Shown here: one piece after another, positions 7,048 through 23,976 of the stretch
Layout: each line of letters starts with the position of its first letter
Position numbering within the stretch: the stretch's first letter is position 1
Assembly (NCBI GenBank): GCA_016744475.1
Contig: JADGEH010000073.1
Span: 1-23,976 of the forward strand
Length of the DNA: 23,976 nucleotides
Direction of reading: 5' to 3'
DNA from: Thiotrichales bacterium
Lineage (GTDB): Bacteria; Pseudomonadota; Gammaproteobacteria; Beggiatoales; Beggiatoaceae
Translations under genes and position numbers: made by a program
Notes under the pieces: model-generated
Database searches by the model: none
What the model was told of the DNA's origin: nothing
The model's input: the letters and a program-made list of their open reading frames with translations, nothing else

Positions 7048-7320
7048 ACACTGGATAAACTTATCCCCCCTTCTCTGCACCAAAGATAAAGTGTGGGATA
7101 ACTCCGTGGATAAGTCTGTAGATAACTATGTGGATAAGTTGTGGGATAACCGTGGTAAAACTTAGCGGCTCATCTGCTCACTCAAGATAGGCTTTTTAAC
7201 AGTGAACATCTTTGCGTCTTAAACAACAGATATATACATAATATACATACATGTGTGATTTCTTAATGATTGATTTATAAATAGTAAACAAGCTTATCCC
7301 ACAACTTATCCCCTCTAATA
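7048..7320 (+). promoter_or_regulatory. Origin-like region. A divergent box pair sits at 7052-7069 (TGGATAAAC / TTATCCCCC). A 12-bp-phased direct array of 6-7 DnaA-box-like units spans 7080-7163; its GATAA cores fall at 7085, 7097, 7109, 7121, 7133 and 7145, and it includes an exact TGTGGATAA at 7129-7137 and TGTGGGATAA at 7092-7101 and 7140-7149. An AT-rich tract at 7200-7290 has tandem atatacata repeats. Inverted boxes TTATCCCACA and TTATCCCCT sit at 7295-7315.
   Basis: E. coli DnaA box consensus TTATCCACA / TGTGGATAA; the exact 12-bp periodicity was counted by hand. The AT-rich tract adjoins the array. The whole 362-bp segment lies between two inverted copies of MITE family 1. Confidence 0.55.
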
Positions 7321-7386
7321 AACATAACAATAATTTTATATATAAGATTTAACTAACACCTTATTGAAGCTTTATACTGCGCTTTG

Positions 7387-7548
7387 AGAGCCTATACAAA
7401 AATGGGATAATCGGCTGCAAACCCGCCCTTTTGGTCAGATTTTCCGCTTTTTCTCAACAAATAGCCTGCTATTCGCCTTCAAAAAACCGAAAAATCTGCC
7501 TCAAAATGGCGGATTTTCGCTTCGATTCCCCATCTTCGTATAGGCTCT
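7387..7548 (-). mobile_element. MITE family 1, full copy in inverted orientation.
   Basis: Its ends, agagcctatacaaaaatgggataatcggctgcaaacccgcc... and ...cgcttcgattccccatcttcgtataggctct, are the reverse complement of the 6865-7024 copy. Confidence 0.8.
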
Positions 7549-7638
7549 TAATCTCTAAAAATAGACAAGTCTATTTATTTCACACATCCTTATCCTTCAA
7601 ATCACTGGGTATGACACCCAAACAGCAAAATTTAGCGT

Positions 7639-8130
7639 ATGAATTTAGATCATCATCAAGGCGGTTGGGTTATTTTTGCCAGTTTCATATTGGCGATATT
7701 ATTAATGCTCATCCCGTTACCCCTATGGGCTGGTTTTTGGCGACCGGATTGGGTCGCTATGGTGTTAATTTACTGGTGTATGGCGCTGCCACAGCGTGTG
7801 GGCGTGTTTTCCGGGTGGTTGGTAGGCTTAGTGCTGGATGTACTGCTAGGCAGCTTATTAGGCCAGCACGCTTTAGTCTTAGCATTGGTGGCTTACTTAA
7901 GCGGTAAAGTGCATCGACGTTTAAGGGTTTATCCCCTACGTCAGCAAGTTTTTGTGGTGTTTTCTTTAGTCGCTATGGTGCATGTATTTAATGCCTGGAT
8001 GCGCCATTTGCAGGGTTATCCCACCGCTTCACAATTGGAGTTTTTATATCCTGCGATGACTAGCTTTTTTCTGTGGCCTTGGGTGTTTATCAGTTTACGT
8101 ATGCTGCGCCGTGGTTTACATGTGCGTTAA
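7639..8130 (+). CDS. mreD: Rod-shape-determining protein MreD, 163 aa.
   Basis: MNLDHHQGGWVIFASFILAILLMLIP...RPDWVAMVLIYWCMALPQRVGVFSGW... against E. coli MreD [26 protein letters not shown]...[26 protein letters not shown].... Polytopic membrane protein. Confidence 0.8.
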   Translation: MNLDHHQGGWVIFASFILAILLMLIPLPLWAGFWRPDWVAMVLIYWCMALPQRVGVFSGWLVGLVLDVLLGSLLGQHALVLALVAYLSGKVHRRLRVYPLRQQVFVVFSLVAMVHVFNAWMRHLQGYPTASQLEFLYPAMTSFFLWPWVFISLRMLRRGLHVR

Positions 8131-13243: not shown

Positions 13244-13404
13244 TAGACTTGTCCAGGCTTAAGACACCGACTGCAAAACAGCGGATATTGGCGGTTTTCC
13301 CCGTTCATTTTCGTTAAATAGAATGACTATTCGCCTCAAATGAACGAAAAAAACCGCTCAATCCCGCTGCTTTTCGCTACGGCGCTTAAGCCTGGATAAG
13401 TCTA
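13244..13404 (+). mobile_element. MITE family 2, full copy of 161 bp with terminal inverted repeats tagacttgtccaggcttaag / cttaagcctggataagtcta. It is inserted between the permease gene and the thioredoxin-like gene.
   Basis: Terminal repeats read directly. A partial inverted copy lies at 6646-6718. The repeat contains CTGGATAAGTCT, which shares an 11-mer with unit 3 of the DnaA-box array. Confidence 0.75.
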
Positions 13405-23276: not shown

Positions 23277-23694
23277 AGAATTAAAACCTTAGCTGATATA
23301 GATACTGAGCTGAAACCAAAAGGCGTATTGCCTGACTTCAAACCGTCATGGGAATATCAGGACATTCTGTTGTGCGCAATTAACGTGAGATGAGATGTGC
23401 TGAAGTACACCCGCCAAACACAACGTAAAGATAGAGTGTTTTGAGGCATTAAATGCCACCCAATATTATGACACATATAAGCTTAGACACTCATTTAACA
23501 GTGTTATAAAACCTGAATACAATGAAGTGCTTATTCTGACTAATGGCGATCAAGGCAAGATTAACGGTGAAGCCTACTATGGCTTTAAATAACTCACCTC
23601 ACGCACACAGCTTGAAATGAGGGGAAATGTCATACTTTTCCTACGCCTGTAAACTCAAGTGGTGGAGCTAGAGCCATCCATCTAAGAGCCTATA

Positions 23695-23844
23695 CGAAGA
23701 TGGGGAATCGAAGCGAAAATGCGCCATTTTGAGGCAGGTTTTTCGGCTTTTTAAGGCGAATAGCGGGCGTGTAACGAAAAAAAGCGGAAAACCGGGCCAA
23801 AAGGGCGGGTTTGCAGCCGATTATCCCGTTTTCGTATAGGCTCT
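23695..23844 (+). mobile_element. MITE family 1, full copy of about 150 bp, upstream of the large acidic protein gene.
   Basis: Terminal repeats agagcctatacgaa...ttcgtataggctct. About 90% identical to the 6865-7024 copy. Confidence 0.8.
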
Positions 23845-23976
23845 AAAGCAAAGGTGACAAAGCTTGCAAAAAAGACACCTTTATAGAACCCATTTGAAAT
23901 CTCAAGAGGCATGAGCCGCGAGACGCTTCACCATAAGACGAATAAAGCAAAGTTTGAGTTTCTGATTGGCATTTTC

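Follow-up and report, generated by a model that had tools for sequence, protein, structure and literature searches.

Where does chromosome replication begin in the large sulfur bacteria? Our literature searches found no description of a replication origin from Beggiatoaceae or Thiomargarita. The question is raised here by a noncoding segment of about 360 bp (7027–7386) in contig JADGEH010000073.1 of a Thiotrichales bacterium (Beggiatoaceae), all 23,976 bp of which were analyzed and are called the window below. The segment, referred to as the core, lies between a ycjF-like gene and mreD, contains a strictly phased array of DnaA-box-like repeats beside AT-rich DNA, and is bracketed by two inverted copies of a miniature inverted-repeat transposable element (MITE). 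From its sequence, the locus is likely a DnaA-binding element built for cooperative oligomerization. We favor, with a probability of only about 0.38, the more specific reading that the core is a DnaA-dependent origin module, most likely the chromosomal oriC, or one oriC, of a marine Thiomargarita-like member of the Beggiatoaceae. Large sulfur bacteria are extremely polyploid and their genomes are rearranged and repeat-ridden; in that setting, a candidate of about 360 bp with a clear box architecture can be tested. If the locus is an origin, then this lineage has parted oriC from dnaA and enclosed it with MITEs. Otherwise, it provides an example of a secondary DnaA-box cluster.

The DnaA-box array and the AT-rich DNA beside it

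A head-to-tail array of six or seven 12-bp units occupies 7078–7161, with the TTATCCACA consensus on the minus strand, and is a candidate DnaA-oligomerizing region. In order, the units read CACCAAAGATAA, AGTGTGGGATAA, CTCCGTGGATAA, GTCTGTAGATAA, CTATGTGGATAA, and GTTGTGGGATAA, followed by the degenerate CCGTGGTAAAAC. Six plus-strand GATAA cores at 7085, 7097, 7109, 7121, 7133, and 7145 (span 7085–7149) keep an exact 12-bp phase. Tandem Repeats Finder called 7085–7150 with periods of 12 and 24, and the base that follows GATAA alternates between C and G, which gives the array a 24-bp super-period. The pattern GATAA-N7-GATAA-N7-GATAA-N7-GATAA matched three times in the window, always inside the array, and never in 100 shuffles. 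Each unit consists of a 9-mer and a 3-bp gap, and most units are weak box matches, including the first and the last. The cluster nevertheless holds a perfect E. coli-type DnaA box without mismatches (7129–7137, minus strand; TGTGGATAA on the plus strand) and two boxes with a single mismatch (7105 and 7117), all three within 33 bp. The sequence TGTGGGATAA occurs at 7092–7101 and at 7140–7149, both times in a unit with an extra G.

Boxes are also found on either side of the array. To its left, a head-to-head box-like pair at 7050–7069 is made up of ACTGGATAA (with GGATAA at 7053–7058), AC, and TTATCCCCC (7061–7069, with TTATCC at 7061). To its right, two tandem boxes in the opposite orientation (7294–7314, plus strand) read TTATCCCACA (7294–7303), AC, and TTATCCCCT (7306–7314), and both deviate from the consensus. 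The stretch 7294–7311 (TTATCCCACAACTTATCC) is an exact 18-nt inverted copy of array units 5 and 6 (7132–7149), and a larger inverted repeat around the opposed boxes has 23-nt arms that are 91% complementary. A direct repeat, AACTTATCCCC(C/T)CT, is seen at 7058 and 7303. A first-pass annotation of this DNA had reported the six phased cores, the perfect box, the two TGTGGGATAA copies, and a divergent pair at 7052–7069; our mismatch scan and position listing recovered each of them. The opposed boxes that it described are present too, each starting one base earlier than it had placed them.

Some 10 box-like motifs thus fall within 260 bp, a density that is far from random. GGATAA and TTATCC hexamers number eight in 7027–7386, against 0.37 expected (about 22-fold; Poisson P = 6e-9). 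Sites within one mismatch of TTATCCACA are enriched in the whole window (19 versus 6.1 expected), and no comparable cluster lies elsewhere in it. In about 1.35 Mb of fetched sequence, almost all of it gammaproteobacterial fragments, a search for at least three boxes in 150 bp returned, besides two phage arrays, one weak triple. This triple, three DnaA-box-like sites with one mismatch each (L024 12240–12273), belongs to a groundwater genome bin, in which it follows mreD at a distance of about 1.8 kb. The pattern of four GATAA cores at 12-bp phase was absent from all other fetched loci, and a metagenome scan with it gave, among the matches listed, only coding or simple repeats (GATAAT, DK/DN repeats). 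Four isolated 11–12-mers that match parts of the array occur elsewhere in the window (2167–2178, 5142–5152, 8014–8024, and 13393–13403; 0.56 expected). Among these are a perfect DnaA box, located in the ycjX-like gene, and, in mreD, GGTTATCCCAC; all four look like isolated single boxes.

The candidate unwinding element is an AT-rich tract at 7228–7377 (77% AT), interrupted by the opposed boxes. By nearest-neighbor stability, these 150 bp are the least stable of all 150-bp windows in the contig, 3.6 standard deviations above the mean. ATATACATA is repeated twice in tandem at 7232–7249. The tract had been noticed before as 90 bp of AT-rich DNA; it is real, but longer. Between array and tract lies a spacer (7155–7227) of ordinary composition that contains neither an open reading frame (ORF) nor an IHF consensus site. 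Indeed, the IHF consensus WATCAANNNNTTR has no match anywhere in 7027–7386, and the window holds just two, at 1874 and 12158.

Directly after the tandem boxes, a run of trio-like triplets (7315–7338, plus strand) reads CTA ATA AAC ATA ACA ATA ATT TTA, that is, 3'-GAT TAT TTG TAT TGT TAT TAA AAT-5' on the bottom strand. Six of the eight triplets have a central A. The first triplet is the consensus one, and it follows the upstream box of the tandem pair by 11 bp. The rule for a basal unwinding system (BUS) asks for a box, a spacer of at most 16 bp (with a peak at 10–13 bp), and three or more NAN trios, the first of them GAT; the BUS search rules are passed by 85% of predicted origins (PMC8287927).

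Two other readings of the core were tried and rejected. A coding role was dismissed on finding only ORFs of 20–44 amino acids. An RNA gene was dismissed likewise, as a scan of the whole window at gathering thresholds returned only two tRNAs at 3241–3389. A permissive RNA-family scan of 6600–7700 gave only sub-threshold matches to microRNA precursors on the MITE hairpins, and the single-strand fold of the region is unexceptional (z = −1.4). A perfect 16-bp hairpin at 6787–6819, downstream of the ycjF-like gene, resembles a terminator but lacks a T run, and it was not called as one.

Mobile elements, assembly and genomic setting

The element that brackets the core, MITE-A, is 160 bp long with termini AGAGCCTATACGAAG...CGTATAGGCTCT, and it is present in four copies in 24 kb, all intergenic. 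Copy 1 (6863–7026, plus strand; 95% identical to 23683–23846) lies to the left of the core. Copy 2 (7387–7548, minus strand), whose sequence is identical in an independent assembly (L001) of the same sample, lies inverted to its right, so that the two form an inverted pair with 362 nt between them. The other copies are at 3865–3918 (partial) and 23683–23846. The same sample also contains a related organism, in which a 229-kb scaffold carries a diverged copy, 69% identical (L385 17851–18011). Searched for by its terminus, the whole element was found neither in viral contigs nor in the two closest loci from Thiomargarita.

A second family, MITE-B, has termini TAGACTTGTCCAGG...CCTGGATAAGTCTA and is represented by a full copy (13244–13404), a left half (6644–6719, plus strand), and a terminus-like remnant of 12–18 nt (7556–7573). 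The patchwork of MITEs and DnaA boxes, 930 bp in all, lies between the half copy and the remnant. With the pieces of both families mapped, the 1-kb spacer between the ycjF-like gene and mreD is seen to be a patchwork of MITE insertions around a unique core.

The first-pass annotation saw a composite-transposon-like geometry in this bracket. The inverted pair and the 362 nt between its members are as it described, and the pair does supply the two bracketing copies of one element that a composite mobile unit has. No special meaning need be attached to this. MITE-A has four copies in 24 kb and, read by eye, the outer flanks of the pair (AGCTTA on the left, TAATCT on the right) contain no matching target-site duplication, so the bracket is probably incidental; MITE density alone probably explains the geometry. 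The orientation of the right-hand part of the core in the second assembly (see below) points the same way, and the window contains no second copy of the MITE-core-MITE unit. It had also been remarked that an 11-mer of the array, TGGATAAGTCT, recurs in the terminal repeat of the other MITE family. It does, at 13393–13403 in MITE-B. This is one of four such recurrences of array 11-mers across the window, each of which includes the GATAA core, and the shared 11-mer therefore does not link the array to MITE-B.

Part of the locus is corroborated by the second assembly of the same sample. That assembly is identical over 7228–7638, through MITE-A copy 2 into mreD and in the same orientation, which settles how the right part of the core is oriented. 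In the ENA assembly of the sample, one scaffold stops at 6914, within MITE-A, and the next picks up at 7228, within the AT-rich tract; a Logan contig stops at about 6810, within the hairpin. Neither break of the ENA assembly falls where an inversion bubble would place it, and 7228 is off the MITE edge. Other contigs across 6914–7228 were sought through small ORFs, and none is on record.

The contig encodes proteins identical to those in assemblies of BioSample SAMN14087006 (run SRR11072027). That sample is a bone-degrading biofilm of marine origin; five Beggiatoales genome bins have been reported from it (PMC7883544). By MreD, the closest genomes are Thiomargarita sp. bins, at 82% and 74% identity. 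The genes of the contig are chromosomal: an SPFH/slipin gene, two tRNAs, ycjX-like and ycjF-like genes, mreD, a TPR gene, fmt, an RDD-family gene, ybeD-like and arsR-like genes, a permease, a cbbQ-like gene, accA, a dsbA-like gene, an ABC ATPase, ruvB, a pentapeptide protein, sbcB, and a large FecR-domain protein. Neither a rep, integrase, phage, or plasmid gene nor, as the first-pass annotation had stated, a dnaA, dnaN, or gidA gene is found on its 24 kb.

On the left, the core is flanked by the YcjF-like (DUF697) gene (5455–6636, plus strand), paired with the YcjX-like gene at 4054–5445; both have a G+C content of 35–38%. On the right is mreD (7639–8130, plus strand), which stands alone without mreB or mreC and is followed by the TPR gene, a gene without known identity, and fmt. 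The stretch 3500–7000, comprising the ycjX/ycjF-like pair and its surroundings, has a G+C content of 35–38% versus 45–50% elsewhere and is bounded by MITE copies. It may be a transferred block; the homologues in relatives occur in unrelated contexts. The two tRNA genes at 3241–3389 (minus strand) abut one another, look noncanonical, and both encode CCA. One is 76 nt long with a short variable arm and the anticodon AGA and is called Ser; Ser tRNAs normally have a long variable arm. The other is a tRNA-Lys(CUU) with C in place of U at position 33.

A possible origin weighed against other readings

Several observations speak for an oriC. The core combines a DnaA-box cluster, a directional, close-packed array of six units, and an adjacent tract of the unwinding type, and it is the unwinding-prone tract together with the oriC-like topology that leads us to favor this reading. 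We also counted in its favor that fmt, accA, ruvB, sbcB, and the tRNAs are chromosomal housekeeping genes, and that the MITEs immediately abut both edges of the core while none has entered it.

The evidence that weighs against an oriC is substantial, and skew and neighbors are its main part. The plus strand is G-rich on both sides of the site (GC skew of 0.046 to the left and 0.071 to the right), with no change of sign. The two genes next to the site on its left have a GC skew at third codon positions (GC3 skew) of +0.11 and +0.19; an origin predicts negative values there. No switch in GC skew or leading strand was therefore found at the cluster, a result that is limited by the 7 kb available to the left and by the patchiness of GC3 skew. 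Over the 7 kb available on the left of the cluster and the 17 kb on its right, there is no dnaA, dnaN, gidA/mnmG, rpmH, parAB, or parS. A parS consensus search found no site in the region, and tblastn with E. coli DnaA found no dnaA in 388 sequences (387 fetched loci and the window). In relatives, no box cluster was found beside the orthologues of either flanking gene. Within the array itself, three units carry the extra G, which costs them three mismatches as 9-mers, and the cluster has a single perfect box. The BUS rule is formally matched at 7294–7338 (tandem boxes, 11-bp spacer, six of eight trios), yet 4.9% of the AT-rich 24-mers of the contig score equally. With about 5% as good, the trio match at 7315–7338 is only suggestive. 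Finally, among the assemblies found, the join across 6914–7228, which holds the array, is supported by the contig itself alone.

Some of these points carry less weight in a genome of this kind. Neighbors such as dnaA, dnaN, rpmH, gidA/mioC, and parAB/parS are typical of origins but not obligatory. GC3 skew runs in blocks, irrespective of gene strand: +0.23 to +0.45 at 7.6–10.6 kb, which includes the four genes just right of the site, −0.05 to −0.25 at 14.8–18.5 kb, and +0.22 to +0.48 at 18.5–23.3 kb. This suggests a mosaic of segments that were once replicated in different directions, and such patchiness weakens the counter-evidence from skew. Both flanks of the core are synteny breakpoints relative to relatives. 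There, mreD is found in an mreB-mreC-mreD-PBP2-rodA cluster in one Thiomargarita bin (L002 7911–13512) and behind exbD in another (L003 9534–12415), and ycjXF runs directly into other genes. Either the junction upstream of mreD is a recurrent breakpoint or the mreD seen here is a second copy. In the relatives examined, mreD, the ycjF-like gene, and the SPFH gene each have different neighbors, with no box cluster there, and the ancestral location of the cluster is consequently untraceable by synteny. In so heavily rearranged a lineage, neither skew nor synteny is a strong witness.

The first-pass proposal of an origin or DnaA-titration element was thus well founded as to a non-random, noncoding box cluster with opposed boxes and an AT-rich tract. 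Where it extends to a chromosomal origin, it meets skew that is positive on both sides and flanks that are not syntenic; from the contig alone, that status is unproven. DnaA binding, cooperativity, and unwinding at the locus are inferred. If the core is an origin, the following sequence of events can be envisaged. DnaA would first occupy the perfect box (7129–7137) and the one-mismatch boxes, and ATP-DnaA would then spread cooperatively, head to tail, across the six 12-bp-phased units. A second, opposite DnaA complex would form on the tandem boxes at 7294–7314. Since these are an inverted copy of units 5 and 6, we propose that the two complexes would face each other, as the sub-complexes of E. 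coli oriC do. From the tandem boxes, the oligomer may extend onto the trio-like run 11 bp downstream, and AT-rich DNA (7315–7377 and/or 7228–7290) would be opened for helicase loading. The MITE-A copies and MITE-B pieces would be later insertions in dispensable parts of the 1-kb intergenic region that left the functional core intact.

All the readings that we weighed are known kinds of element, and two are serious rivals of an oriC. One is a non-origin cluster that regulates initiation as a DnaA sink or modulator of its nucleotide state, like datA, DARS, or the Bacillus clusters, with the array loading an oligomer without firing. We regard this as possible but doubtful. The head-to-tail array shares the orientation logic of datA (PMC5742627), and the lack of a skew switch, a replication gene, or a conserved position fits clusters that may lie anywhere on a chromosome. 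Large sulfur bacteria are highly polyploid, and extra titration capacity would be plausible in such cells. However, datA and DARS2 need an IHF site between their boxes, whereas the core has none; datA and DARS have no unwinding element, whereas here the least stable DNA of the contig surrounds the boxes, with trio-like triplets after them. Nor has the array (7078–7165) any similarity to E. coli genomes by blastn. The other serious rival, which we consider unlikely, is an acquired or relic origin: a piece of the replication origin of a phage or plasmid, or an oriC that was once in use and has since been displaced, left between MITEs by the rearrangements of this scrambled genome and now decaying or idle. 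Head-to-tail arrays phased at 12 or 11 bp abound in viral contigs, phage arrays are all that the core matches in databases, and one viral array lies between two replication-initiator-like genes. The boxes here are degenerate versus the near-perfect phage boxes, both flanks are breakpoints, and the left flank (G+C 35–38%) looks foreign. Yet the contig has no phage, plasmid, integrase, or Rep gene, the two-box unit and the 24-bp dimer have no viral counterpart, and the core has no plasmid counterpart. Moreover, long neutral decay would hardly have left an exact 18-nt inverted copy and a strict 12-bp register.

The remaining explanations are less probable still. DnaA acts as a transcription factor at several promoters, and the cluster lies upstream of mreD with no gene between. 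A DnaA-controlled promoter region for mreD and the genes downstream, or for a divergent transcript, is nonetheless improbable: promoter-like sites number 3 versus 3.2 expected from shuffles, 160 bp of MITE separate the cluster from mreD, and 10 sites with an inverted module and an AT-rich tract far exceed known DnaA operators. Inverted copies of one MITE 362 nt apart, and breaks of the second assembly inside the region, could be taken to mean that the MITE-core-MITE unit is itself functional, as a composite, mobilizable, or invertible cassette with DnaA-binding cargo; cargo-moving units flanked by MITEs are known in other bacteria. We give this very little credence. Two MITE-A copies in a 1-kb spacer are unremarkable given four intergenic copies in 24 kb, the outer flanks lack a matching duplication, and the second assembly joins 7228–7386 to MITE copy 2 and mreD in the same orientation, with its break off the MITE edge. 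Of similarly slight probability is the related idea that the bracketed core is a portable or invertible origin cassette, with mobile elements having relocated or multiplied origins in a polyploid giant sulfur bacterium. It would mean chromosomes with an origin uncoupled from dnaA, or with more than one origin. An iteron array for a protein other than DnaA, or a simple satellite, seems no more credible. Three units and an opposed box do read TTATCCCAC(A) rather than TTATCCACA, and TTATCCCC is present at both ends in direct orientation. However, the invariant part (GTGG-ATAA) is that of the DnaA box, no Rep-like gene is nearby, and the locus is single in the window. Weak sites with three to four mismatches are, in addition, normal in DnaA arrays (PMC5742627).

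Comparison with known systems

Composite units flanked by MITEs are known elsewhere as the MITE-bracketed integrons of Acinetobacter and as integron mobilization units. The locus resembles them in having two copies of one MITE around a short cargo; it differs in the lack of a target-site duplication around the pair, and it is not known in a second copy.

Like E. coli datA and DARS and the DnaA-box clusters of Bacillus, the locus is noncoding and away from dnaA, and the essential boxes of those elements share a direction. They lack an unwinding element, in contrast to the core. The datA arrangement of same-direction boxes with an IHF site between them is reproduced here in its boxes only; datA and DARS2 depend on IHF, for which 7027–7386 holds no site. 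In the core of DARS, three boxes are set at fixed distances and box I is oriented against II and III; of the motifs here, those at 7053/7061 form an opposite-orientation pair.

In databases, the core is similar only to the phased DnaA-box arrays of two phages, and blastn against plasmids gave no match. In Escherichia phage P483, the array (L204 1500–1625) is noncoding and lies between a gene 0.3 homologue and a packaging gene. In a microvirus (L205 1500–1547), four TGTGGATAAGTC units at the end of a replication-initiator gene are followed by AT-rich DNA. In viral contigs, three GTGGATAA boxes at 12-bp phase are found in at least 120 stretches, and stretches of four boxes number 28 at 12-bp and 38 at 11-bp phase. 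Viral arrays (IMG/VR, L211–L377) are often followed by iteron-like repeats or AT-rich DNA, and some appear by eye to be coding (CCTGTGGATAAC would read PVDN). One (L246) is the array between two replication-initiator-like genes mentioned above. The locus shares with the phage arrays the head-to-tail register of 12 (or 11) bp and the TGTGGATAA(C/G) unit; theirs are near-perfect boxes, whereas the boxes here are degenerate and the contig has no phage genes. Its TGTGGGATAA unit and 24-bp dimer have no counterpart in the viral contigs, where the two-box unit gave one chance coding match and the dimer none. Because phased arrays are so common there, the 12-bp register is best seen as standard box packing that is not peculiar to this locus. 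That such arrays are a widespread phage module is also a caution for anyone reading them in bacterial contigs.

Among origins, the right part of the core recalls the BUS of Bacillus subtilis and other bacteria: tandem boxes, of which the upstream one is closer to consensus, then central-A triplets with 3'-GAT-5' first, and then AT-rich DNA. Unlike in the BUS, the tandem boxes here are off consensus and the putative trio run is statistically weak. In Thermotoga maritima oriC, a compact head-to-tail DnaA oligomer likewise forms on about five boxes.

The E. coli oriC sequence used for comparison was 100% identical to that in real genomes. The locus departs from it in its phase (12 bp versus 11 bp), in the 144 bp of partly AT-rich DNA between its two box sets, and in lacking an IHF consensus, a GATC cluster, 13-mer repeats, and gidA/mioC neighbors. 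What the two share is layout. E. coli oriC carries two head-to-tail DnaA pentamers that face each other (PMC10316083, PMC5742627), in the order unwinding element, TGTGGATAA-oriented boxes (left sub-complex), and facing TTATCCACA-oriented boxes (right sub-complex). Both have same-orientation boxes of mixed affinity with a few base pairs between 9-mers, and in both an AT-rich unwinding element adjoins the box set whose TTATCC orientation points toward it. Flipped, the locus follows the same order: AT-rich DNA (7377–7315), two boxes, the partly AT-rich gap (7150–7293), and six boxes in the opposite orientation.

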